Virus record (IMG/VR): IMGVR_UViG_3300042904_000308
Coordinates: 51,173-115,172 of that record
Source: a virus
Strand: one strand, 5' to 3'
DNA: 64,000 bases
The notes beneath the pieces are model-generated. The model did not search any database and had not been told where the DNA came from. It saw only the letters and a program-made list of their open reading frames with translations. Each line of letters begins with the position of its first letter. Position 1 is the stretch's first letter. A program made the position numbers and the translations under genes. Positions 5,034-59,548 of this stretch are shown one piece after another.

Positions 5034-5567
5034 TCAGTTCATCCTTTCAAACGACTCCCACTCCAGCAGCGACGTCGGCAGTCGATAAAACGGCTTCGGC
5101 TTTCCGCCGTCCTGAAAGTGATCGACCTCCAGATCAGGCAGCAGCTCCGCGAGCTTGTCCATCGTCATTCTGTAGGAGATAGCTTCGTTCTTACTGTCGT
5201 ACACAAATACGGTAACAGGTCTTCCGCTAGACGTTTGCCAATTACAGAGCTGTTGTACATTATCGAGTTTCAGTTTAATGATCTGGTCCCTGCCGACCCC
5301 CTTAATCTCGGTGAGGAAGTGGCGTGTGATCTTTCCCCTTTCATCTATGAGATGATCGAACCTTTCACCCTGAGCCTCACAGAGGAAGTCGGGCGTGTAA
5401 CGTAAGAACGGCGAGAGCCGCATGAAGTGGTCAAAGGGCGGACGCTGCATCCCGTACTCAACGTATGTGATGTCGTTCTGTCTGCACCAATGCTTGAATA
5501 CTCCCTCGGCCATGTCGCCCATCTTCTTAAACCGCACGTTAAACGGTTTATCCTTGAATTGGGACAT
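5034..5567 (-). CDS. PD-(D/E)XK endonuclease
   Basis: GDMAE...YTPDF...TEIKG. Confidence 0.65.
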   Translation of the reverse strand: MSQFKDKPFNVRFKKMGDMAEGVFKHWCRQNDITYVEYGMQRPPFDHFMRLSPFLRYTPDFLCEAQGERFDHLIDERGKITRHFLTEIKGVGRDQIIKLKLDNVQQLCNWQTSSGRPVTVFVYDSKNEAISYRMTMDKLAELLPDLEVDHFQDGGKPKPFYRLPTSLLEWESFERMN

Positions 5568-5580
5568 GTCTGTAAATCAA

Positions 5581-7480
5581 CTATTTCCCTTCTGACTGAC
5601 GCCGCTGCTCGAAGTACGCTTCACGAAAACCCTCCGCGAAGCCTGCGTAGTTGACACTGATGAAGAGCGATATCAGTGTGATGATCGTGATCGTGTCGTC
5701 GCTGACAGGCCAGTCACCTGTGAACAACCGCATGACCAGCAGACCCAGCAGTATGAGAGAGATAACCATGTATGCCTCCTGAAACGAGATGTCAGCTGAC
5801 TAACTCTCGATAAAGTCGATGAAGTCTCCGAAGCGTGACTCGAAGCGCGGCCAGTAGCGGTTGCGTACCTGCAGCTTGCCGCACGGCTCGACGCTCACGC
5901 CGTCCATCACAGACACGTCAATCGTCGTGAACTCCTCCCCCTGTCGTACCCGCGCCTTGAAGACGGCGGGGTACCGCTTGTCGATGGGGTCTTCCTTCCC
6001 CTGCAGTCGCTTGACCTCGGCCTGCACGTCACGCAGCGGCACCTCTGCCGCCTGCTTCAGCAGCTCGGGGATCACGTCCTGATGCTCTTCGTCCCGCACC
6101 AGCGGCAGGATCGCTCGCACCTTGCTGACGCCAGCGTTCAGCATCAGCTCGATGGCACTGTCCACCCGCTCGGCATCGGGCGCGAGCATTGGCAGAACCT
6201 CGCGGCGAATCCGCAACAGGTCTTGCACAACGCGCCAGCCAAGCTCGATGTGTGGCCCCATCGCCCAGGTCCGCAGATCGGGGCAGCTTCTGGCGAGGTA
6301 GTACTGGTTCTCGTCAAACTGGTGCAGCATGTTGGCAAGCCTGAAAAAATTGAGCTCGATACTTCGCTTGGTGTCGACGATTTCCGACTCGGCTTCCTCC
6401 GCCGCCTGGACCTCCGCCTGTGTAATATCTCCGTAGACATCGGCGTATCGGACGAGCTCACCAGAGCCGTCCACTATCCATTGATCCTTAGCCACTTATC
6501 AGTTTCACTCCAGCCTCAGCAAACGCATCAAGGACCGCGTCCGCTTCAATTAGCAGGTGCTCGTGAGGAAGGGAGTGCTCTGGCATCTCCTCCCACGGCA
6601 CCCAGTCTTCACCATCATTCACGGTGCTCCAGATCGCCTCGGCAACCAGCCGCCGAAACTGCTCAGGATGTCCCTGCTGCACCACCGTCACGACCACATC
6701 TTCCAGAACTCAAGCAGGACGATGATCAGCGGGATGTTCCACACCACGCCGCGCACAATCTCCGCTTCCGATTTCTCCACCGTCTCCCGCCTCATCCTCA
6801 GGGCGAGCTCAGGCGCAAACAAATTGATCGTAATCATGACCGTCACCGCAAACGCGACGATCAGGAATGATCCAAATACAATCCAGTCCCACATTTAATT
6901 CATTCTTCCTTTACCAAGACACTCGACAGATTTTGTCGTCTGACCTGTTGACTGATCCATCGTGGTACTGATCCGATACCGCGTAGGGCGGTTTGCCCAC
7001 CTGTGTGCCGCGCCCCAGCCCTTCAGAAACAACTGCAGCAGGACGTTAACAACGACGGCAACAATCAACCCCAGCGCTAGCCAGCCAACAATCCAGAGCG
7101 CGACTAACGACTCAGATTCCATTGCGTTGTTCCACTCTTCCTTATCACTCTACTCCTACAAGCTCATAGACAGGCTCAAGTGTCGGCACGCGCTCGCACT
7201 CTTTCTGTCGGTAGATCGTCTTTCCAATCATCTTGGTATCCCAATGACAGCGGTACTCATTCTCGTAGAAGTAGCTCTCGCCTCCTCCGCCGCCGAGCAG
7301 AGAAGCAGCCAGCAAGATGACGACCGTAATACCGACGATATGCGCAAAGATAACACCGATCATAGCCAACATCGGCACAAACGAGTAGTATCCGAACTCA
7401 TTTTCAAGTGTGTTATTGTGGTTTCCCCACCAGTCAAAGTACCGCTGCACTGGGCGAAGAGCTCTGACTACATACGTCAC
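5581..7480 (-). other. cluster of hypothetical CDSs (5581-5769, 5800-6495, 6488-6697, 6688-6894, 6895-7122, 7145-7480), several membrane proteins
   Basis: Contiguous minus-strand ORFs with RBSs. Confidence 0.55.
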
Positions 7481-7484
7481 ACAA

Positions 7485-8441
7485 CTAATCCTTTCTTCCT
7501 TTTTGTACGCGCTCCGTGAGCGATCCCTTCACTGGGTGTGGCTCAACGGGCTCGGGTTTCGGTTGTGACCATGTCGTCTTCGCGGGGTAGAACGTCACAG
7601 GCGTGCTGCCCGTCGGACCCTCGCGGTTCTTGGCGATGATAATCCGAGCGTCCCGCTCCTCTTCCAGTGGCGGTGAACCGTTCATCTGCTCGTAGTAGTA
7701 CGGTCGGAACGGGAACCAGACATTCTCCGCGTCCTGCTCGACCGCGCCCGAGTCACGGATGTCCGACATGTTCGGTATCTTGTTCTCGCGACCCTCAACA
7801 CTACGATTCAGCTGTACCAGTGCGATGATCGGAATGTTGAGATAATCAGGCCGAGCCAGCGCACGCAGGTTGCTGCTGATACGGGCTACTCTTTCGTTCT
7901 CGTTCACCTTGGCGGCATCCCTCAGCAGGGAGAGGTAGTCCACGACGACCAGCCCGAGGGGAGGCCCAGGGGCGGCGGCTGCGCGTTCTGCCCACTTCTC
8001 CGCGTCGTCGGCCAGCCCCTCAGATGTGAAGGTGGTGTCGGCCATTGCGATGGGGTACTGGCGCAGCTCTTCCGCAGCCTGCTTGACCCTGCGAAACTCC
8101 TCAGGGCTGAGCATGCCGCGCACGATCTTGCCGCCTGGGATCATCGTCATGCTGGAGAGCATGCGGTTGACCATCCGCTCGGCGGTCATCTCCAGCGAGT
8201 AGAAGAGCACGCGGTTATTGGCCTTCGCCACGTTCTGCGCGATGTTCAGGGCGAGGGATGTCTTCCCTACCCCTGGACGCGCTCCGATAATTGTCAGTGT
8301 GTCGGGCTGGAGCCCTCCCGTCAGCTCGTCGACGCGATGAAAGCCAGTGGGGATGCCGATTGTCTCGACACCCCCACGTTTCTGCCGCTCTCCGACGATC
8401 CCGAGGTAGCTCTTCGCCACGTCCGCGATCAGACGTGCCAT
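7485..8441 (-). CDS. dnaB: replicative DnaB-like helicase (C-terminal ATPase domain only)
   Basis: GIPTGF, GARPGVGKT Walker A, SLEM, VVDYL, QLNR, DIRDSGAVEQDA and IAKNREGPTG. Confidence 0.93.
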   Translation of the reverse strand: MARLIADVAKSYLGIVGERQKRGGVETIGIPTGFHRVDELTGGLQPDTLTIIGARPGVGKTSLALNIAQNVAKANNRVLFYSLEMTAERMVNRMLSSMTMIPGGKIVRGMLSPEEFRRVKQAAEELRQYPIAMADTTFTSEGLADDAEKWAERAAAAPGPPLGLVVVDYLSLLRDAAKVNENERVARISSNLRALARPDYLNIPIIALVQLNRSVEGRENKIPNMSDIRDSGAVEQDAENVWFPFRPYYYEQMNGSPPLEEERDARIIIAKNREGPTGSTPVTFYPAKTTWSQPKPEPVEPHPVKGSLTERVQKGRKD

Positions 8442-21965: not shown

Positions 21966-24707
21966 TTACCCCTCCTATCGAACCGCTGCCCATACCACGG
22001 ACGCGGCACTGAACGCCCACACGAACACCCAACCATACTCCGCGATCAGGTTCATGTCACTGCCTGCCTCCTCACTAATCCTCGGTGAAGTGTCGTTATG
22101 TCTCCCTATTACGACAGCACTACCCGCCGTTCTGTGCCTTTGTTCGATCTTCGATGAGTAGGCCATCGTGATAGATCGCCGCCGACTGATATGCCCCACT
22201 CACCCACAGGATGCAGAGTGCCGCTGCTGTCATACGTACCCGCGTACTTAGCCGTATCGTGGGGTAAGGAAACATCGTATCGGCGCGATCCTCCCACCTG
22301 TCGTCTGAGAACTCCTCGACCGTTCGTTCCCCGTCCTCGGTGACTCTCACTACTTTCCACATTAGCGGAACCTCCCTTCCTGTATCAGGTGACTCACCAC
22401 CTGATTCTCGACCTCCCGCTGCACCCGTTCGAGCAGGTACCCCACCGACTCATTGACCTCCCTCAGTGAAGTCTCTGGCGACACGCCTCGTGGACCGTTC
22501 TGGAACTCGAAGTCCTCCAGTGCCAGCACGACCAGCCGCTCGATCAGTTCCTCCGTTAGCTCTCCCATACGCCTGCTCCACTGATCCCGAGCCGCGTAGA
22601 CGTCGAGCCGTGCCTCCTGCTGTGTACTCATGCCTCTCTCCTATCTGGTGTACAGATCGTACTCATGTTGCCAGTCGGCAATCTCTTCCTCGGTCCACAA
22701 CGCAGGATTCGAGCCAGTGCCGACACACATGGTGCAGTTCTGGATGTAGGTGCTGCCGTCGGGTCGCGTGACCAGTCTCCATCCCTCTCCGTTGCAGACG
22801 GGGCACTCCTGGGGCACAGGCTCGGGCACAGGCTCCTCGTGCATCTTCTCGACGCACTTGTATGACAGCTTCCGCAGTGCGTCGATCATATCAGGTGTGA
22901 ACATCGAACGTGCCCCTCTCTCCACTAATACGCTGCCATCGCTCGGCAGTCCTCGATGAACTGCTCCCGCTTGTCCTCGGGAAACAGCTGGCCGAAGAAC
23001 CAGTAGCGGGACTCCCACCCCTGCTCCTCGTTGATGCCGATGAGTTCGTTGGTGAGCCGAGCCATCGCGTGCAGGTGTGTGATGCTCAGGTTGATGTTGT
23101 TGTCGGCAATCGCCTGCTGGTAGCTCTGCAATGCCTCGCACGCCTCGCCGTGTACCGTTGCGTAGTCTCGCACGCTAGTCCTCCTCTCCTGCCCACGCCT
23201 GGGCCGACAGTCGATCAATCTCCGCGTTGTAGACCTCTCCCATCACGTCCCATGCGAACGATGTCAGCGCGATAATCGTGACCACATACTCGCCACGCTT
23301 GGGGAATAGAATCATCGCCTGCTTGTAGACGATGCAGTTTGAGCCTTGAAACTCAGGCGACTCAAACGGGAAAAAGGGCTCTTGATTGTATGACCTGCAC
23401 CGCTTGTTGACTGCCTCCATGAATCGCTCGTACGCCTGCGAACCGCCTGTAATCTGCGCCCGTAACGTGTGGAACGAATACCAACCGTGTGAATGGTTCA
23501 TGTTTTCCTCCTCTATCTGAGCCTCTAAGCCAACATTGCGGTTTCTTCGTCAAGAATCTCTGATGTCCCGTCTACAAGAAACGGTCGAGGAAGATCGTCG
23601 CAAGCCGTAACCTCGTAGACGCATCCAGACAGCTGCTTCGTGATACGCACCCATCCTTCTGTCAAGGTACACCACACCTCCTGACCGACCTGAAAATCGC
23701 ACATGCTTCCTCCTCTACTGACAGTAGCAGTACGTCGGCGTGCTGGGATATGCGCTGGCAATCTCCCCGCCTGCTATGACCTCGTCGCGGTACGCTGTCG
23801 CTTCGTCCCTGGACCCCCATCCAAGGCTCACCCACTGCTCGTTGCGCCACACCATGACGCACCATGCGCGGTCACAGCTTGGTACATTCCTCAACATTGG
23901 TTCCTCCTCTACGATACCCTCTACTCTAAGGGCACGATGCAGGGTGCCTTGACACCCTGACTCGTAACCTCAGCTGTTTGCTAGCCGCCAATTTCATATG
24001 CGATGCGGTTCAGTGGTTCTCCGTTGGACCGCAGTTCAACCACGGCAAGATTCTCCTGGGTCTGTCGCCCGAGCTTGTCGATGACCTCCTTGAGGTCCAT
24101 CCCGTAGGCCTCTGCGGTGACGTCGCCCGTCGTCTGGTCGATGAGCTTGCCGCAGTACCCCGCGTAAAATTTCGTCAGGTCGATGTAATGCGTCTGTTCC
24201 ATGCTTTCCTCCTAGCTAAACGGTGGACCGTCCCACGGCTCCTGCATACCCGCCTCTACTCTACAGACCTCGCACCAGCCAAGGGGATCAGCTGAGTGGC
24301 GCAGGGCCAGGGAGAGAGTGTCATGCGCCACGATGAACCCGTGATCCTCGCACACCGTCTGCCAGCGGCCCCCAGCCGTGTCAAGCATCGCCTCCTCGCC
24401 ATCGTAGACCGCCACGATGCGGCCCGTCTGCCGCGCTCGTGCCCACTTCCTCAGCCCCGCATGGTCGGGCCAGTTTCTCATCGCCAGAACCTCCCTCAGA
24501 GCGTTGACTTGTCTTGGTACCGCCCGAGCCACGCTCTCGCATCTGCCAGACTTCGATGAGCGTTTTCCAAGCGTCGGGCGTCTCTAGCAGAAGCATCGAA
24601 CGATGGAAGACTGTCGCGTTCCGCCTGTGCCGCCCTCTTTATCTCGGCACTGATGCGATCTATCTCTTCTTGCAGCCGAGAAATGTCCTTGCGAGATAAC
24701 GCTCGAC

Positions 24708-24905
24708 TCATCGCCAGAACCCCCCGTCGCTGTAGACGTTGATGAGACGGTCGCCCTCGTACACCTGCGCCTGCCCCCCGTCCTGATCGACCCACGCTTG
24801 CGCCTGGGCGTAGGCATCGAGCAGGGTCGAATACTCACGCACCAGCCCCCTCAGCGTTATCCATTGTCCACGCTCGTTGAACCCGAAATGCTTGACCTCG
24901 AACAT
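24708..24905 (-). CDS. hypothetical protein, paralog of 33414-33608
   Basis: Shares EVKH.GF..G.W.TLR..VREY.TL.DAYA.A..WVD..GGQAQVYEG.RL.NVY..G.FWR with the second copy. Confidence 0.75.
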   Translation of the reverse strand: MFEVKHFGFNERGQWITLRGLVREYSTLLDAYAQAQAWVDQDGGQAQVYEGDRLINVYSDGGFWR

Positions 24906-26016
24906 TGTTCCTCCTCCTATGCTTGTGGGTACGCCTTTGCGACGTCCCTACCCTTATGGGTCAGCAGCACCTTGAGATTGCTGAGGCTCAGGCTTTCCCG
25001 CTCGTACCGCGCCCTGGCCTGGGCCTCATCGTCGTACTGCGCAAAGAACCATGACGGTCGATCCGACCAGACCCCCGAGGGCGCGAGATAACTGACCGAC
25101 CACTCTGTCACCCTAATCTTCATAGCTTCTCCCCCAGCACGCCGTTGCCGTGGAACGTTATCGTCCTGTAGTGACCACTCGCCACAAGGTGCCTGTTGCG
25201 CTTTCCCGCTGCCTGCTTGACTGCCTGGAACGCCACGAGAACCTCCAGCCTCGTGACGGTTCGCTCGACCTCGCTCCGCCGATTCTCGTTGTGTGCCCAG
25301 CACGCCATCCTGTGAACATGGGAAGCGGCATCGACCTCCGCCTGCAACCGCTCCCCCTCCTCGTCCAGATGCTCCCACACGGCGTCAGTCTTGTTCGTCA
25401 TCCTCCCACTCCTCGTCGTAGCCGTTGATACGGTCGGCTCGAAGCTCCATTTCCTGCGCCAGCTTCGCCAGAACGTGTTCCCGCAGCTGCCTCGTCAGCC
25501 GCTTGACCCCGTAGTGATTGCAGATCGCCTCCCTCGGCGCGTAGACGATGCCTGCCAGCCCCGCGTCCCACGGACAGGTGAACTGGCCCCTCGGCGTGGT
25601 CGTGGCACAGAGGGCCACCCCGCCATGCACGTAGGCGTAGACAGGGAGCGCCACCCCGCGCCCAGGCTCGTTCAGATAGGCGACCGTGCCGCTGATCGTG
25701 ACCTGTGCCCGTGCAGGCAGCGTGTCCACGAACCGCTCCAGGTCTGCATCGACCGAAAAATATCTGCTGGTCGTCTTGCCGTAGAACGTTCCGATCATCG
25801 TTGTGCCTCCAATACTGTTCGTGCCTCGTCCCATTGAATCCACCCGTCGCGTAAGTCCTCGGTTAGCTCGGCAATCAACCCCCTTTGCGTACCCTGCGGT
25901 GCCGTTACCTGCTGCCTCGTGACCTTCCCTGCAATGCGCAGCGTGCGCAGGATCACGAATCTCCCCTGCGCGTTCGTGGTGGCCTTGTATGTGACCCTCA
26001 TCGTGACTTCCTCTCT

Positions 26017-26337
26017 CTACCCTAACACTCGCTCGATCAACGTTCGTGCCCTCATCGACGGCTCCCGCGTCAAGAAGCCCTTGCCGCGTGCTGCCTCGTA
26101 AGGAACGGGAGTCTCAAACTGAGCAGCTGTCACATCCAGCACCTGACCGTCGAGCGTCCGCAGAAACCAGTGTGACGCCCCCTCGTGCCTCACGTGCATC
26201 GGTGTATCGACCCTGCCCCGTAGATGGTACAGAGCTTCACTAGCCACGTAGCAGTGCCCCGCCAGCGGATGGCTTCGACCCCTCCATTCAGGCCGCAGCA
26301 GATCAGGCGTGAGACGTGCAACAACCGCGTCAACCAT
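26017..26337 (-). CDS. papain/transglutaminase-like fold protein
   Basis: GHCY...HWFL...LDVT gives a putative Cys-His-Asp triad. Confidence 0.5.
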   Translation of the reverse strand: MVDAVVARLTPDLLRPEWRGRSHPLAGHCYVASEALYHLRGRVDTPMHVRHEGASHWFLRTLDGQVLDVTAAQFETPVPYEAARGKGFLTREPSMRARTLIERVLG

Positions 26338-26858
26338 CGTGACTACCTCTCTCTACCCTAACACAGATTCCAGCGTCTCGACCGCTTCGAGCATGTTCGC
26401 CCGAGCTTCCTCGATCTGCGCCAGCAGCCGCTTCGATACCTGCCGCCTCCCCCTTGCCTGGGCCTCTACCGACTTGAATCTCGATGCCGCATCAGCCGCC
26501 TTACGTCGAGCCGCCTCGATGCGCTCCGCCTTCTCGACAGCCTCCCGCTTCCGCCGTCGCTCGACGCGATCCCTGATCCGCTGTTGATCGAAGTCCGTGA
26601 AGAAACCCTCCAGCTGCACCGTGAACCTCCTCTACCCTTCCATTCCCGCTCGGCTTTCAGCTTCCAGTTCCAGCCTGTGAGCTTCGTCATAGCCCACCCA
26701 AATCTGCACGGTGCGTCGAATGCCGCGCTCCATGAACAGACCCCGATCTTCGACAACCCTGCTGTCCTCCTTCATGTCCCGAAACGCCCCAGCCCACAGC
26801 TTCAACAGTAGCTCCCGCTGCTCGTTATCCACGCCTGAACCTCCTCGCTAAACCAATC

Positions 26859-26978
26859 GGTGGAGCTGGGGGGAATCGAACCCCCGTCCAGACCACGAGC
26901 CACCCTTATAGAGTGGATGGGCTTGTTTCTGTGCGCGTTCTCGCCCGTCCCGTACCCTGTCGATACCATGACAGCCCC
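26859..26978 (-). ncRNA. ssrA-like: miniature tmRNA (tRNA-like domain intact, mRNA-like domain reduced)
   Basis: 5' GGGGCUGUCAUGGUAUCGAC and 3' GACGGGGGUUCGAUUCCCCCCAGCUCCACC. Acceptor stem GGGGCUG/CAGCUCC has G3.U70 and A73. It also has a T-arm and a P2-like stem, and is only 120 nt long. Confidence 0.85.
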
Positions 26979-27753
26979 AGGTGAGGCCCAGGGTCGGGCC
27001 TCGATGCTTACTTGACTTCCGTCGTGACACTGCGAACGGTGAGTCCCTTGAACCAGTCCTTGAGGTCATCGTCGTGCTGGAGAAAACTGGCAAAATCTCT
27101 CAGCAGTTCGTCGAAGGGATACGGCTCATCCTCGGCCATACCCCACGCCCCCACAGCCTTGCGTTTGTTGTAGGTGACGTTCAGCGTGATCGTTGCGCGT
27201 GCCATCGTGTTACCCTCCTACTCGCAGATGCAGAACGACTTCATGTTCCCACAGAACAGGCACTCGTCGGGATGAGACTCGGCCAGAATGATGCACGGCA
27301 CGTCGTAGAAATACTGCGCCAGCACCTTGACCTCGTCCAGCCCGTCGTACGCGGCCTGAGCCTCCTCCTTCGTCTCGAACGTCGTTACCTTCTCGTCAGT
27401 GAGAACCGCGTACCACATTACGTCCATCGTGTGACCTCCTCGTGTGAATCGCCAGTCCGTTTCTCCCTACCCTTGCAGGGGTACCTTCGTGAGCGAGTAC
27501 CGCTCCAAGAGAGAGTCGCGATATTCGTCAATTTCTTCGTCTGTCAGGTCGTCGTAGACCTCGACCTCCTCAGTGACCCCCTCTCCAATCTCAGCGTTCA
27601 TTGCCGCCACAGCTGCCGCCTCGTTCGCGTACACCCCCACGACATGCACAATGTTCTCGTCCTGGTTCTCGTACATCAGCACCACTACATCCATCGTGCG
27701 ACCTCCCGCCTGCTTGTGCAGGCACGTTCTACCCAACGCCTGAGCCTCTCGCT

Positions 27754-54845: not shown

Positions 54846-55805
54846 CTAAAAGCCGAGCTTGGCGTACTCCTCCTTGAGCTCGTCTTTCGCCACCTGCGCG
54901 TAGATGCGCGTGGTCTGTGGGCTGCTGTGACCCAGCAAGTCCTGCACGACTTCCAGCCGCTTGGTCTTGTTGAGGGCCATCGTCGCGAAGGAGTGCCGCA
55001 GCACGTGTGGCGTCAAATCCTCTGGAAGCTGGGCCTCCCTGAGTCCTTCCTTGAAGGCCGCGTAGGCCGAATGCGGGGTCATCGGCTTGCCCATATCGAC
55101 ACCGAACGACCGACCAGCCTCGCCGTAGAACACATAGTCCGTGTACGGGTGATCCCCGATATACCGCTTCAGACGTTCGATCAAGTGCGCAGAGAGGGGC
55201 ACAAACCGCTCTTTCCGCCCTTTACCGATAATCTTGACGCCATCATCGAGCACGCCGTCCTTGCGCAGCGTCAGAATCTCCTCGATGCGCAATCCCGCCT
55301 GGAACATCACCCGAAACAGCAGACCGTACTTTTCCGCCGTGTCTTCCTGCGCCCAACCAAAGTGCTTCGTGTTGTCATCACGGCTCAGCGCGTCCTGCCG
55401 CTTTCGGCGCAGCGCAACCTCGATGCCGTCGAGCACGCGATCAATCTCCTCGCGAGTGAGGATGGTTGGCAGCTTGCGCGGCAGGGTTTCCGCCATGATG
55501 TTCGCCATCGGGTTGTTGCCCTCGTAGAGCTTGTTGCCGATAGCCCACGCGAAGAATGTACGGACGGCGCTGATCGTCTGGTTGCGGGTCGCGGGTGACA
55601 GGTTTCTGGCCTTCGCCTCACGCACCATTCGCTCACCATCCTTGACCACCCACTGGCGCAGCGGTCTGTCGACAAGCGACTCGGCGCGGCGAAGCGCTTC
55701 CCCATAGGACGACAGCGTTTTCTCGGTGCCCATCTTTCCCGCGTACGGCAAACCGTGGCGCTTGGCATCGATGAAATCCTCAATCGTCATTCTCACAGCA
55801 GACAT
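54846..55805 (-). CDS. tyrosine recombinase/integrase (XerC/D-like)
   Basis: GLRIEE (R), GKGRKER (K), HVLRH, LGHS and TRIY catalytic residues, plus a SAM-like N-domain. Start is 55805 or 55790. Confidence 0.92.
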   Translation of the reverse strand: MSAVRMTIEDFIDAKRHGLPYAGKMGTEKTLSSYGEALRRAESLVDRPLRQWVVKDGERMVREAKARNLSPATRNQTISAVRTFFAWAIGNKLYEGNNPMANIMAETLPRKLPTILTREEIDRVLDGIEVALRRKRQDALSRDDNTKHFGWAQEDTAEKYGLLFRVMFQAGLRIEEILTLRKDGVLDDGVKIIGKGRKERFVPLSAHLIERLKRYIGDHPYTDYVFYGEAGRSFGVDMGKPMTPHSAYAAFKEGLREAQLPEDLTPHVLRHSFATMALNKTKRLEVVQDLLGHSSPQTTRIYAQVAKDELKEEYAKLGF

Positions 55806-55841
55806 CCTTTCAATAAACCTTATCTCACTCCACCTAATCTT

Positions 55842-55871
55842 ATCGTACCACCAAATTAGGTGGTGTGTCAA
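55842..55871 (-). promoter_or_regulatory. sigma70 promoter of the recombinase with overlapping inverted repeat
   Basis: TTGACA-N18-TACGAT; CCACCTAAT (55830) / ATTAGGTGG (55855). Confidence 0.65.
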
Positions 55872-55881
55872 GGAGTACCCA

Positions 55882-56358
55882 GTGGCCGAAACCGATGAAT
55901 ACGGTCTGCCCGAGGCAGAGCCTGAAAAACGCAAGCGGGGGCGTCCGAAGGGATCAAAAAACAGACCTCCTGAAACGATCCTGACGCGGGATCGCCTTGA
56001 AAAGCTCTACGACAAGGTCAATCCCTATCTGACGCCAGAGCAGAAGAAATATACCCGAGAAATTCTGGACGGGAAACGAGAGGTTGACGTCCAGTACGAA
56101 ATGCAGCTGCTGGTCCGCCAGCTCTCCATCATCTTCTCCGAAGCCGCGATCTGGTTCTGGAACGAGAAGAAGGTCAACCGCGACCTTGCGATGTTTGCCG
56201 ACTCGTTGCGGCAAGCCCTCAAAGACCTCAACGAAATCAATCGACAAGTCGAAGACAAGCAAGAGAAGACGAAAGAAGATGATCTGGTTCGAGTCACCGA
56301 GCGGGGGTCCACGCTGGAAAGGCTTAAAGCCCTACCTGGCTTCGATACCTCCGAGTGA
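55882..56358 (+). CDS. terS: terminase small subunit (putative)
   Basis: GTG after AGGAG, AT-hook-like KRGRPKGSKN, and a position directly upstream of terL. Confidence 0.6.
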   Translation: MAETDEYGLPEAEPEKRKRGRPKGSKNRPPETILTRDRLEKLYDKVNPYLTPEQKKYTREILDGKREVDVQYEMQLLVRQLSIIFSEAAIWFWNEKKVNRDLAMFADSLRQALKDLNEINRQVEDKQEKTKEDDLVRVTERGSTLERLKALPGFDTSE

Positions 56359-57859
56359 GCGTGAAGAGGTTATCGATGGACTCTGTCTGAGATATCCACC
56401 GTGGTTTTTCGAGCTGTTGACGGAAGTCAACGCGGGAGAGCCGACGCAGTTGGAAGCGTTTCAGATTGCCTACCTCCTCGATGACTCCCGTTACAAAATC
56501 ACCAACAAGACGAGACAGGCTGGCGGTTCGCTGGTCGTATCGATGGCGAAGTTCTGGAAATGCTATCGCAACGAACAGACGAACTGCGACATCGTCTCGA
56601 TCAACAGGGCTGAGGCCCAGGGTAAAATCACGTACATCCGCAATCTGTGGGAATCGCTGCCTGCACGGTGGCGGCACCCGCTGGCTATCGACAACGCGGA
56701 GAAGATTGCCTTCCATGCGGGTCGCCGCATGTCGACGATCCGCTCCATCGCCGCCAGCGCAGGCGTGCGCGGTGGCCGCAAGGATATCGTCTTCGACGAG
56801 GCGGCACACATTCCCCTCTTCGAATCGCTCTTCGTGGCCGCGCTTCCCGCGACGGTCAGGGCCAGGGGCGGCTTCGATGTGGTCAGCACGCCGATGGGGC
56901 AGGTTGGCAAGTTCTTCGAAATCTGGAACAACTTCGAGAATCGTTATGAAGACTGGGCGCGGCATGCCTTCGTCTGGATCGACGTGTCGCAGTTCTGTCG
57001 AGCGTGCGACGAGGCCCGAGAGGTCTTCGAGTCAGAGTTCGAGGGCAACCCCGACGCCTTGGTGAACTTTGGCGAGCTTTACGAAGAATACGCCACCCCT
57101 GAATTAAAGAAAGTCGGTCGAAACTTTACCAGCGAGGAGTTCCTGCAGGAGTTCTGCGGGAAGTTCGTCGATGAATCGACCGCGTACTTCCCCTACTCCC
57201 TGATCGATCCCTGCCGCAAGCACGCGGAGCCACAGCCGCTGCCGAACGGAAGCCTCGACGACTTCAACGTGCTCAAGCCCTGGCTGACAGGCAAGCCCGA
57301 AGACAACGAGAACGACGTGACGATGGGCATTGACTTTGCCGAAGGGCGCAAGGGCGGTGACTCCACATCAGTCCAGGTCATCGAAAAGGAGCGCGACGGC
57401 AGGCTGCTGCAGCGCTACTACGCCGACCTCGACCACACCAGCGGATACGACGACTTCGACAAGCAGATGACGGAATTCAACCGCCTGATCGACGTCTTCC
57501 ATCCCGTTCGGGTCAGCGTGGACGAAACAGGCCTGGGCCGCAAGATCGCCGCCGACCTGAAAAAGGCGCACGGCGGACTGATCGAGCCCATCACCTTCAC
57601 CCATCAGAACAAGGAAGCAATGGCGCTGAACCTGCGCGGCCTGCTGGAGACACACAAGCTCTGGCTGCAGTACGAGAATAAGCGTATTCGCGGCCAGTTC
57701 CATAACATCAAGCGAAAGATTACCTCACACGGCAACGTGACCTATAGCGGTGAGCCCCACGACGACATGTTTTGGGCGATGGCGCTCGCCTGTAAAGGCG
57801 CGGGTAAGTCGCGATTCCAGATTCTCACACTCGATGATGACAGCCCTATTTCAGGGTAG
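56279..57859 (+). CDS. terL: terminase large subunit
   Basis: KTRQAGGS Walker A variant, VFDEAAH Walker B, STPMG, GIDFA, VDETGLG and HDDMFWAMALA. Start is approximate. Confidence 0.92.
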   Translation: MIWFESPSGGPRWKGLKPYLASIPPSEREEVIDGLCLRYPPWFFELLTEVNAGEPTQLEAFQIAYLLDDSRYKITNKTRQAGGSLVVSMAKFWKCYRNEQTNCDIVSINRAEAQGKITYIRNLWESLPARWRHPLAIDNAEKIAFHAGRRMSTIRSIAASAGVRGGRKDIVFDEAAHIPLFESLFVAALPATVRARGGFDVVSTPMGQVGKFFEIWNNFENRYEDWARHAFVWIDVSQFCRACDEAREVFESEFEGNPDALVNFGELYEEYATPELKKVGRNFTSEEFLQEFCGKFVDESTAYFPYSLIDPCRKHAEPQPLPNGSLDDFNVLKPWLTGKPEDNENDVTMGIDFAEGRKGGDSTSVQVIEKERDGRLLQRYYADLDHTSGYDDFDKQMTEFNRLIDVFHPVRVSVDETGLGRKIAADLKKAHGGLIEPITFTHQNKEAMALNLRGLLETHKLWLQYENKRIRGQFHNIKRKITSHGNVTYSGEPHDDMFWAMALACKGAGKSRFQILTLDDDSPISG

Positions 57860-57883: not shown

Positions 57884-59548
57884 ATGACTATGACACAACC
57901 TTCCCCGCTTCTGTACGACGCCCGTGGCGCACCAATCCAACGCAACGTGAATACGGCAGGGCTCTCTTATACGGGGCCAATGGTGATCGGCTCAAACACT
58001 GAGCTGAAAGGCGCTGTGCCGAATCCACGTCGCGGTGACTGGCGCGACTACTGGGCAATGTACGAGCGGCATCCAATTGTCTACGCGGCAATTAACAAGA
58101 TCGTCAAGGTCTGTACGAATACAGGCTTCGACTTCGTCCCTCGTGATAACCGACAGGATAAGGTCAGTGAGGAGCAGGTTAGCGCGGCCAGAGCGTTCTT
58201 TAACGATCAGGACGACTTCATTGGCGAGCTGCGCAGAATCTACCGCGATCTGCTGATCTTCGGTGATGCGTATCTCTACCTCGTCTATGACCGCCGCCGA
58301 CGCCCGAAGCGGCTGAAACGGCTGGCTCCGTGGACGATGAATATCAAGACCAAGAAGAACGGCGAGGTCGAGTACTACGTGCAGAAAGACCCGTCGAGGA
58401 TCGATGACAAGGGCACGATCTTCCGCGACGTGGAGATACTCCACTTTCGGCTTGACAACCCTGTTGACGACATCTATGGACACCCGCCGCTGGAAGCGCT
58501 GAAGGGTGATATCGCCGCCGACCTCTACGCGGCGAGCTACAACATGAACTTCTTCAAGAATGGCGCGGCGACAGGCACGATTCTGGCCGTCGAGGACGCC
58601 ACCAGTGACGACCTCGAACGCAACCGACGCTGGCTGCGCGAGGAGTATGCGGGTACCGAGAACGCCCACAAACCGATCATCCTGTCAGGCAACGTCAAGC
58701 TCCACAAGAGCATTCAGACCTACGCGGAAATGGGCTTCCTGGCTGGTCGAGAGGCAATCAAGGGCCGCATTCTGGCCGTACTCGATGTGCCTCCCGCCAA
58801 GATCGGTGACATGGAGTCGGCCAACAGGTCGAACTCCAGGGAACAAGATAAATCTTTTCGCAGCGAAAGCATCATGCCGCTGCAGTACACCGTGGAAGCG
58901 GTCATCAACGACAAGCTCATGTCGCGCATTCTCGGCATCAACGATGTGCTCTTCCAGCACTCCGAGGCCGACATTCGGGACGCACAGGAGCAGATGGACC
59001 TGTGGGCGAAGAGCGTTGAAAAGGGTCTGATGACCATCAACGAGATTCGCGCCAAGATGGGTCTGCCGCCGATTGACGGCGGTGACATCGCCTTTGTGAT
59101 GACGCCGACTGGCGCGGTTCCCGTCACCGACCTGGAGCTGTACTTCCAGCTCCCCTCCATCAACACCGACAAGATTCCGCCAAGCACTCACGACGGTCAC
59201 GGACACCCTGATGGCACCGAGGGTGAAAGCACGACAGGGCCGAAACAGCAACCCACTGCTAACGTCAAGCCGCAGGTATCCAGAGCGGTTTCACCCGAAG
59301 TCCAGCATGCCCAGCTGGTGCAAATCTGGCTGGAAAAGGCCCGTGACGACAACGACAAGGCGGCACTGCGAAGTGCCTACACCCTCGCGGTAGACGCCGC
59401 TGAGCATGCAACTGGGGCGCTTATTCCCCAGGTTGTGGGATCGATCAAGAAAGCGCTCAGCACCGACGACGTTGATTTGTCGCTCGGCTACATCGAGCGT
59501 GCCTTCGGTTTTCTCTCAACGCTTATCGCTTTTGAAGGAGGCGAGTGA
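57884..59548 (+). CDS. portal protein (HK97-like)
   Basis: LLIFGDAY, EILHFR, YGHPPL, FFKNGA, VPPAKIG and TINEIRAKMGLPPIDGGD. Confidence 0.92.
   Translation: MTMTQPSPLLYDARGAPIQRNVNTAGLSYTGPMVIGSNTELKGAVPNPRRGDWRDYWAMYERHPIVYAAINKIVKVCTNTGFDFVPRDNRQDKVSEEQVSAARAFFNDQDDFIGELRRIYRDLLIFGDAYLYLVYDRRRRPKRLKRLAPWTMNIKTKKNGEVEYYVQKDPSRIDDKGTIFRDVEILHFRLDNPVDDIYGHPPLEALKGDIAADLYAASYNMNFFKNGAATGTILAVEDATSDDLERNRRWLREEYAGTENAHKPIILSGNVKLHKSIQTYAEMGFLAGREAIKGRILAVLDVPPAKIGDMESANRSNSREQDKSFRSESIMPLQYTVEAVINDKLMSRILGINDVLFQHSEADIRDAQEQMDLWAKSVEKGLMTINEIRAKMGLPPIDGGDIAFVMTPTGAVPVTDLELYFQLPSINTDKIPPSTHDGHGHPDGTEGESTTGPKQQPTANVKPQVSRAVSPEVQHAQLVQIWLEKARDDNDKAALRSAYTLAVDAAEHATGALIPQVVGSIKKALSTDDVDLSLGYIERAFGFLSTLIAFEGGE

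Follow-up and report, generated by a model that had tools for sequence, protein, structure and literature searches.

Background

The described RNA closest to the one considered here is the tmRNA of mycobacteriophage DS6A, which the tmRNA Website classes as 'TLD only' (standard, no CDS; tmID 11587; PMC4131195, PMC11915505). Entries designated 'standard, no CDS' make up only 9 of the 97,179 in the tmRNA database (PMC11915505). As reported in PMC4131195 and PMC11915505, Mao et al. (2009) found that a molecule similar to that of DS6A strongly inhibits tmRNA in E. coli, whether it is chargeable or not; the cause suggested there is, perhaps, titration of SmpB. Peptidyl transfer to TLD-only tmRNA has been obtained in vitro (Shimizu and Ueda 2006, as cited in PMC3895274). 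Frame-less tmRNAs are also known from organelles, in particular the mitochondria of jakobids and oomycetes (RF02544) and, as ~65-bp forms, the plastids of Mallomonadaceae (PMC11915505).

The tag-less tmRNA of a phage is thus already published, and the copy analyzed here is a less common variant of greater length in which two additional hairpins are conserved. (A literature search for published phage forms of 110-130 nt found no paper.) The preliminary description of this locus, which cited tag-less tmRNAs from mitochondria and full-length tmRNAs from phages and missed the DS6A precedent, overstated its novelty.

An RNA gene with tmRNA termini in a soil phage

The window, that is, the whole 64,000-nt stretch of DNA that was analyzed, makes up the right-hand end (64 kb) of an IMG/VR virus record, which is linear, 115 kb long and ~80% complete. 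(Coordinates are those of the window unless stated otherwise; RNA nt n is window position 26979-n.) The record is the tailed-phage contig of an uncultured soil phage, with genes for a large terminase (56084-57859), a portal protein (57884-59548) and a DnaB-like helicase (7485-8441, minus strand). It also encodes a tyrosine integrase (54846-55934, minus strand) and a large serine recombinase (24423-26072 of the record, G000, to the left of the window; minus strand), and the phage may be temperate; no att site of the phage was identified. Soil metagenome runs contain the same DNA as the window; the sequencing runs listed for it include no RNA run. Megablast of the 6-kb neighbourhood against cultured phages gave no match, the portal protein is at most 26% identical to those of cultured phages, and an Atlas look-up of the portal protein gave no clue to the host. 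Relatives in viral contigs were found neither for the 414-aa neighbour protein nor for a 64-aa homologue of the ORF upstream of the RNA gene.

Both tmRNA termini are present on the minus strand at 26978-26859 and delimit a gene for an RNA of 120 nt (26859-26978, minus strand; RNA nt 1-120). Its match to Rfam family RF00023 extends over model positions 1-374, at 72.5 bits and E 2.9e-26, and is thus far from anything that chance would give; the score is well above the gathering score of 47 bits, and both ends of the model are reached. In the alignment, 40 nt stand in for 292 model positions as an unaligned insert. A covariance model of our own (R1, see below) gives it 81.1 bits. This is the sole tmRNA match to RF00023 in the whole record. 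The two search routes named in the preliminary description diverge at this point: RF00023 returns the end-to-end match, and ARAGORN, run on the window and on the whole record, returns no tRNA and no tmRNA. The 120-nt element is confirmed as a genuine tmRNA derivative that is conserved (see below), keeps its tRNA-like domain intact and has no tag frame.

Sensitive BLAST of the element gives a match over the 3' 31 nt only, and this lies in Pseudomonas phages that have full permuted tmRNAs. The segment is identical to the 3' end of the tmRNA of Pseudomonas phage SM1, and the match is also found in phages PaMx31, FBPa45 and UF_RH6. The SM1 gene itself (NC_041877, ~53.96-54.46 kb; L002 1358-1860) encodes a circularly permuted two-piece tmRNA (RF04321, 118.6 bits; beta_tmRNA, 111.2 bits), for which ARAGORN gives the tag ANDTSFDVRLAA followed by a stop; it lies in a 1.4-kb stretch without annotated genes and adjoins tRNA-Arg(UCU).

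The mini-tmRNA gene occupies a 175-nt gap between two small minus-strand ORFs and is on the same strand as both. The upstream ORF (27008-27205, stop codon at 27010-27008) has a 90%-identical homologue in JGI data; the downstream ORF is at 26632-26832. Neither a σ70-like promoter nor an intrinsic terminator was found near the gene by consensus, and the preliminary description's term 'early-expressed' finds no support there. A G+C-rich hairpin read from the sequence, GAGGCCC-GACCCU-GGGCCUC (26983-27002, minus strand), follows directly after the stop codon of the upstream ORF, ends 4 nt 5' of the mature mini-tmRNA end and has no U tract. Comparable hairpins lie 5' of other mini-tmRNAs (in contigs L022, L023 and L082).

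One contig from a soil run (X2) retains window 27033-27086, the end of the upstream ORF, with 1 mismatch and window 26848-26890, comprising the T arm and the 3' end, with 3 mismatches; between them, 145 other letters replace the 142 of window 26891-27032. It looks like a sibling phage whose mini-tmRNA has a strongly divergent 5' part and interior.

Secondary structure

The tRNA-like domain is complete by the standards of SsrA, with a 7-bp acceptor stem, the alanine-specifying G3.U70-type pair, a discriminator A, a T arm and a stemless D loop. The acceptor stem is formed by GGGGCUG (26972-26978, minus strand; nt 1-7) and CAGCUCC (nt 111-117), with G3 pairing to U115; the 3' strand continues into discriminator A118 and C119 C120 (26859-26868 in all, minus strand). 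The encoded 3' end thus reads ...ACC followed by g; the gene does not supply the last A of CCA, which is encoded in 69 of the 75 mini-tmRNAs found by pattern (see below). The D-loop-like segment UCAUGGUAUCGA (26960-26971, minus strand; nt 8-19) is placed by the Rfam alignment and is stemless, as in tmRNA; the motif GGUAUCGAC of this segment is present in 16 of the same 75. The T arm is GGGGG-UUCGAUU-CCCCC (26869-26885, minus strand; nt 94-110).

The rest of the RNA is built on helix P2a, whose 5' strand CAGGGUACGGG (26949-26959, minus strand; nt 20-30) lies opposite the 3' strand CUCGUGGUCUG (26889-26899, minus strand; nt 80-90). Ten of its 11 positions pair, and the remaining one is a G.G mismatch. 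P2a encloses an interior of 49 nt with two hairpins, which together are the minimum-energy fold of the P2-enclosed part. The first, Ha, is P2b-like (26919-26946, minus strand; nt 33-60): its stem GGGC/GCCC (nt 33-36 with 57-60) carries a 20-nt loop, GAGAACGCGCACAGAAACAA, which contains CGCACAGA. The second, Hb, is CCACUC-UAUAA-GGGUGG (26900-26916, minus strand; nt 63-79). The connecting residues are the bulge A31 C32, then A61 U62 between the hairpins, and G91 A92 C93 before the T arm. Termini, acceptor stem with its G3.U, T arm, P2 helix, both hairpins and the single stop codon are all where the preliminary description had put them. It had also called the tag-reading and pseudoknot domain 'almost deleted'; the interior is more than a remnant, with a P2b-like stem that is conserved together with its 20-nt loop, and a further hairpin that has been added.

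Folding of the whole RNA without constraint gives a free energy that is not unusual (z = -1.7) and a mispaired D-like region. Such mispairing is, we assume, usual for tRNA-like domains.

The pseudoknot ring of SsrA (PK1-PK4) is missing: in the window RNA and in its relative L003 (see below) the interior consists of two plain hairpins. A pseudoknot made from GGGC/GCCC and GCG-AGAA-CGC was considered and rejected, the two helices overlapping; an H-type pseudoknot in L003 was rejected likewise, since it would break the well-supported second hairpin.

Absence of a tag reading frame

Across the three frames of the RNA there is a single stop codon, UAA at nt 71-73 in the loop of Hb, and its frame has no GCN resume codon. 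In L003 and L082, the two relatives with the same plan, stops occur elsewhere and in different frames, and the window RNA and L003 differ by an 8-nt indel within the supposed tag frame. The three RNAs have neither a conserved reading frame nor a conserved stop; this and the indel imply that the interior carries no tag message. The RNA accordingly differs from SsrA in having no resume codon and in-frame stop kept in its relatives, and the reading of the interior as a tag ORF ending in RTETSPSTL-stop was rejected on the same ground, neither frame nor stop being conserved.

Relatives with the same plan

The preliminary description had pointed to phage metagenomes as the place to look for homologues of the same size, and they exist there: pattern scans that fixed only tmRNA-type ends found L003, a 122-nt mini-tmRNA in a 4.8-kb viral contig, and L082, one of 125 nt in a 14-kb viral contig, in addition to the wider family treated below. 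In the search that found L082 the 5' end was left free, and L082 nevertheless keeps G3.U. The L003 contig has no detectable protein in common with this phage, and neither contig shows similarity to it beside the RNA.

L003 folds as P2a, GAGA, a stem GUGAC/GUCAC with a 21-nt loop, AA, the hairpin GCCGG-UAUAC-CCGGC, and AUA. In L082, P2a is followed by a stem GGCUGG/CCAGCC round a 35-nt loop, which has GCGAG(U)AACG and CGCACAG in common with the window; there is no second hairpin of the Hb type. The CACAG motif of the Ha loop is common to the window RNA, L003, L082 and two shorter mini-tmRNAs, L040 and L064.

Over the helices shared by the three relatives there are 12 double changes, of which 11 are compensatory and one repairs a mismatch; all helices are kept. 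Between the window RNA and L003, the acceptor stem and the T stem each have one double change that preserves pairing, Ha has two, and the outer 9 positions of P2a have three; in addition, the G.G mismatch becomes A-U. In Hb, 4 of 5 pairs are altered on both sides, with the loop motifs CACAG (Ha) and UAUA (Hb) unchanged. L082 adds further changes, an A7-U pair in the acceptor stem and a U-A pair in the T stem, and has a wholly different Ha stem. (The totals over the three relatives are two for the acceptor stem, two for the T stem and at least three for P2a, with the Ha stem different in each.) The compensatory changes in L003 and L082 rule out a recent, decaying deletion.

A wider family of phage mini-tmRNAs

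IMG/VR was scanned with one strict pattern in three spacing ranges, which yielded 6 loci at 61-66 nt, 46 at 76-92 nt (nearly all 77-82) and 3 at 110-122 nt. The ~80-nt form (46 loci) is thus the commonest class, and forms of 102-132 nt are rarer. A scan of JGI metagenomes found 18 loci in the range of 102-132 nt, of which one is false, and a scan of species genomes gave one further mini-tmRNA, inside a tRNA array, together with one degenerate locus. At the 15 loci that were tested, all mini-tmRNAs score above the gathering score of RF00023 (56-75 bits). Three of 108-118 nt (L007, L020, L025) lie inside phage tRNA arrays, a setting that fits processing of the tRNA type. (L007, on a 196-kb TARA scaffold, has 15 tRNAs within 10 kb of the mini-tmRNA; in L025, it lies between tRNA-Leu and tRNA-Thr.)

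R1 is a covariance model of the parts that are shared, and its alignment holds 63 matches, including a few weak matches to tRNAs or full tmRNAs. In this alignment 97.9% of cells pair, and 252 cells are altered on both sides vs 64 +/- 7 in shuffles and 11-34 in controls with slid partners. Acceptor pairs 5 and 6 covary over the 63 matches, with none unpaired; the outer 5 pairs of P2a and three T-stem pairs also covary across the family. Because the search patterns fixed G1-G4 and 3' UCCACC, conservation of G3.U in the family is partly there by construction; with these letters fixed and the alignment fitted to the R1 model, it is acceptor pairs 5 and 6, those of P2a and the three T-stem pairs that are informative.

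In the ~80-nt class, P2a leads into an A-rich bulge, mostly UAAA, after which come a hairpin of 2-4 bp with a small loop, 1-3 nt, and the return strand of P2a, in agreement with the Rfam consensus line (P2a, a 'GAa' bulge and a 4-bp element); the plan of DS6A is exactly this one. L040 and L064, at 81-82 nt, have CACAGA in the small loop, and the 8-mer CGCACAGA is common to L040 and the window RNA. Read in sequence terms, the window RNA appears to be the same stub enlarged, with a longer P2a, a P2b-like stem that carries a 20-nt CACAG loop, and a new hairpin on the 3' side.

Other loci stand apart from these. The L019 metagenome contig carries two 132-nt mini-tmRNAs 2 kb apart on the minus strand (5296-5427 and 7474-7605). 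In the group formed by L019, L004 and L012 a short frame, A-I-T/S-A-F-x-x-T-stop, is open in three variants with UGA kept, and ARAGORN reads one copy as a tmRNA with the tag AFNAT and a stop; this may be a genuine tag of very short length, or it may have arisen by chance from a conserved structure. Elements at L081 3754-3819 (in a 117-kb viral contig) and L083 2923-3025 have acceptor mismatches, lack GG..UCGAC and score 40.7 and 27.7 bits with R1; they may be attP-type fragments of ssrA or degenerate mini-tmRNAs. Two candidates were dropped: L009 3501-3619, a tRNA-Ala gene with a tmRNA-like 5' look-alike (GGGGAGGTCAGGGGTTCGAC) upstream and no mini-tmRNA, and the Myxococcota locus L024, which has a broken T stem and falls under the Rfam cut-off.

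Proposed function and alternatives

The gene, its fold, its conservation and its want of a tag frame are observed, and are best explained, with a probability that we put at roughly 0.6, as those of a functional phage gene for a tag-less tmRNA derivative that would compete with host tmRNA for SmpB and stalled ribosomes. The preliminary description had offered an SmpB decoy and tag-free rescue as possible roles, and these are the same as the literature gives for DS6A (PMC4131195, PMC11915505); for the window RNA we infer the binding of SmpB and the effect on the host, as well as processing and charging, along the following lines.

The mini-tmRNA would be transcribed together with the surrounding small minus-strand genes as part of a polycistronic transcript, from which host tRNA-processing enzymes would excise it, RNase P cutting at G1 and trimming of the 3' side following. 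The G+C-rich hairpin (27002-26983) might then protect the 3' end that the RNase P cut leaves on the upstream mRNA. The missing A of CCA would be supplied by the host's CCA-adding enzyme. Host AlaRS, SmpB and EF-Tu would recognize the tRNA-like domain, and charging by AlaRS is probable. No SmpB, RF-1/ArfB-type or Pth gene was found in the phage record, so the mini-tmRNA must rely on host partners. Lacking a resume codon and a tag frame, it would not itself tag proteins; by competing with host tmRNA for SmpB and stalled ribosomes it would lower SsrA tagging, and the non-stop mRNA decay that is linked to it, during infection. The 11-position P2a, the P2b-like hairpin and the extra hairpin would be a lineage-specific elaboration of the ~80-nt, DS6A-like stub. 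Pure titration may be an incomplete explanation, because a simple SmpB sponge needs neither interior hairpins nor alanine identity.

Retention of the alanine identity elements and of the CC(A) end, together with a G3.U that persists in L082 even though its 5' end was left free in the search, could also be read as signs of productive, tag-free rescue. The charged mini-tmRNA would then enter the stalled ribosome with SmpB and EF-Tu, and its alanine would take over the nascent chain, which would leave by drop-off and Pth, by release of the ArfB type or in a second round of rescue, as a product that is not degraded; the ribosome would become available again for phage translation. The peptidyl transfer in vitro that is cited above from PMC3895274 is in keeping with this, and the same idea has been raised for the frame-less tmRNAs of mitochondria (PMC11915505). 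On the other hand, no resume or stop signal occurs in the RNA at a conserved position, the record encodes no Pth or ArfB-like protein, and a TLD-like molecule inhibits tmRNA in E. coli rather than replacing it, as PMC4131195 relates. Rescue of this kind is a possibility of the second rank, and we consider it doubtful.

It is unlikely that Ha and Hb make the interior a working module with an activity that 80-nt mini-tmRNAs of the DS6A type do not have. If they did, the module might, for example, enter the decoding site or mRNA channel and trigger factor-mediated release of the alanyl-extended chain, which would be another form of tag-free rescue, or it might recruit a protein of the host or of the phage (RNase R or S1, for instance).

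The RNA might instead serve as a decoy for RNase R, defence nucleases or other enzymes that cleave or bind tmRNA or tRNA, with the rescue pathway itself not the target, an arrangement that strikes us as improbable. RNase R is recruited by tmRNA-SmpB, and no part in SmpB binding is known for the conserved interior loops (CGCACAGA, UAUA). Phage-made t(m)RNA fragments are known to bind RNase R and to act in an anti-CRISPR complex (PMC11662646). Against this, the parts that are conserved throughout the family are the tRNA-like domain and P2a. The connection that had been drawn to defences that cleave mRNA or tRNA is speculation.

An attachment site, either in place of the mini-tmRNA or combined with it, with integration into ssrA by way of the 3' 31 nt, is more improbable still. 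An attP or island fragment of the ssrA type holds the 3' part of the gene only and sits beside an integrase; here the 5' end is present, pairs with the 3' end and, in the relatives, covaries with it, the integrase genes are 28 kb and 52 kb away, and no part of the RNA has a second copy longer than 12 nt in the record. In favour of such a site are the genes of the record for a tyrosine integrase and a large serine recombinase, the identity of the 3' 31 nt with other tmRNA ends, the branching of soil contigs exactly at 26859 and 26889, and the recurrence of the same 28-31 nt, joined to poor 5' halves, in viral contigs L081 and L083. The soil contigs that break at the edges of the 3' block are, we believe, the tmRNAs of other organisms.

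That a full-length ssrA was once captured and the gene is what is left of it, a deletion derivative without function and in decay, as its missing pseudoknots and tag frame and its incomplete CCA might suggest, can hardly be right and is already contradicted by the data, the plan of the deletion being common to L003 and L082 in unrelated contigs with all shared helices compensated, and the same boundaries recurring in dozens of phage mini-tmRNAs. Of the outcomes that the preliminary description had allowed for, an att remnant and a decaying ssrA, the locus is neither: L003 and L082 keep the shared helices through double changes.

Tag-less tmRNA mimics seem to be a common and almost unannotated phage route to the ribosome-rescue and tagging system of the host; ARAGORN does not pick them up. 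The window RNA and the 80-nt forms constitute a natural series in which the parts needed for SmpB binding, for ribosome entry, and for inhibition as opposed to rescue might be told apart. The window copy represents a distinct size class and, taken alone, opens no new kind of biology.

Comparison with known systems

The DS6A element was located at JN698994 28478-28559 (L080 479-560), where its GenBank record has no annotation. R1 gives it 55.6 bits; with RF00023 it reaches 43.2 bits, slightly short of the cut-off of 47, so standard pipelines will not report it. Like the window RNA, it is phage-encoded and has a complete tRNA-like domain with G3.U and no tag frame, and P2a, bulge and small P2b-like hairpin follow one another in the same plan; the window RNA is, in these terms, of the DS6A type. 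It lies outside the size of that type: in DS6A, which is 82 nt long, a P2a of 6 bp is followed by an A-rich bulge and by a 4-bp hairpin capped with a tetraloop, whereas the window RNA has 120 nt (71 nt from D-like loop to T arm; the common phage class is 76-82 nt), an 11-position P2a, a 4-bp stem with a 20-nt loop, and an added 6-bp hairpin.

The phage mini-tmRNAs of ~80 nt and of 102-132 nt share the tRNA-like domain and P2a with the window RNA, and pass or approach the cut-off of RF00023. The longer ones, from metagenomes, fall into groups A, B and C; of these, groups A and C (102-132 nt, from marine data) have a GNRA hairpin on the 5' side, before the P2b-like stem, unlike the window RNA. 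The group made up of the window RNA, L003 and L082 is marked by the CACAG loop and, in two of its three members, by a hairpin 3' of the P2b-like stem.

The termini, acceptor stem, D-like loop, T arm and P2a of the window RNA align with those of standard one-piece tmRNA (SsrA, RF00023), from which it differs in having no tag frame, no PK2-PK4 and no supported PK1, and in being 120 nt long vs 374 model positions. The frame-less organellar tmRNAs are comparable in that they, too, have little beyond the tRNA-like domain, no tag CDS and, presumably, SmpB as partner (PMC11915505). They differ from the window RNA in being mostly permuted two-piece genes, in lacking Ha and Hb, and in their separate origin.
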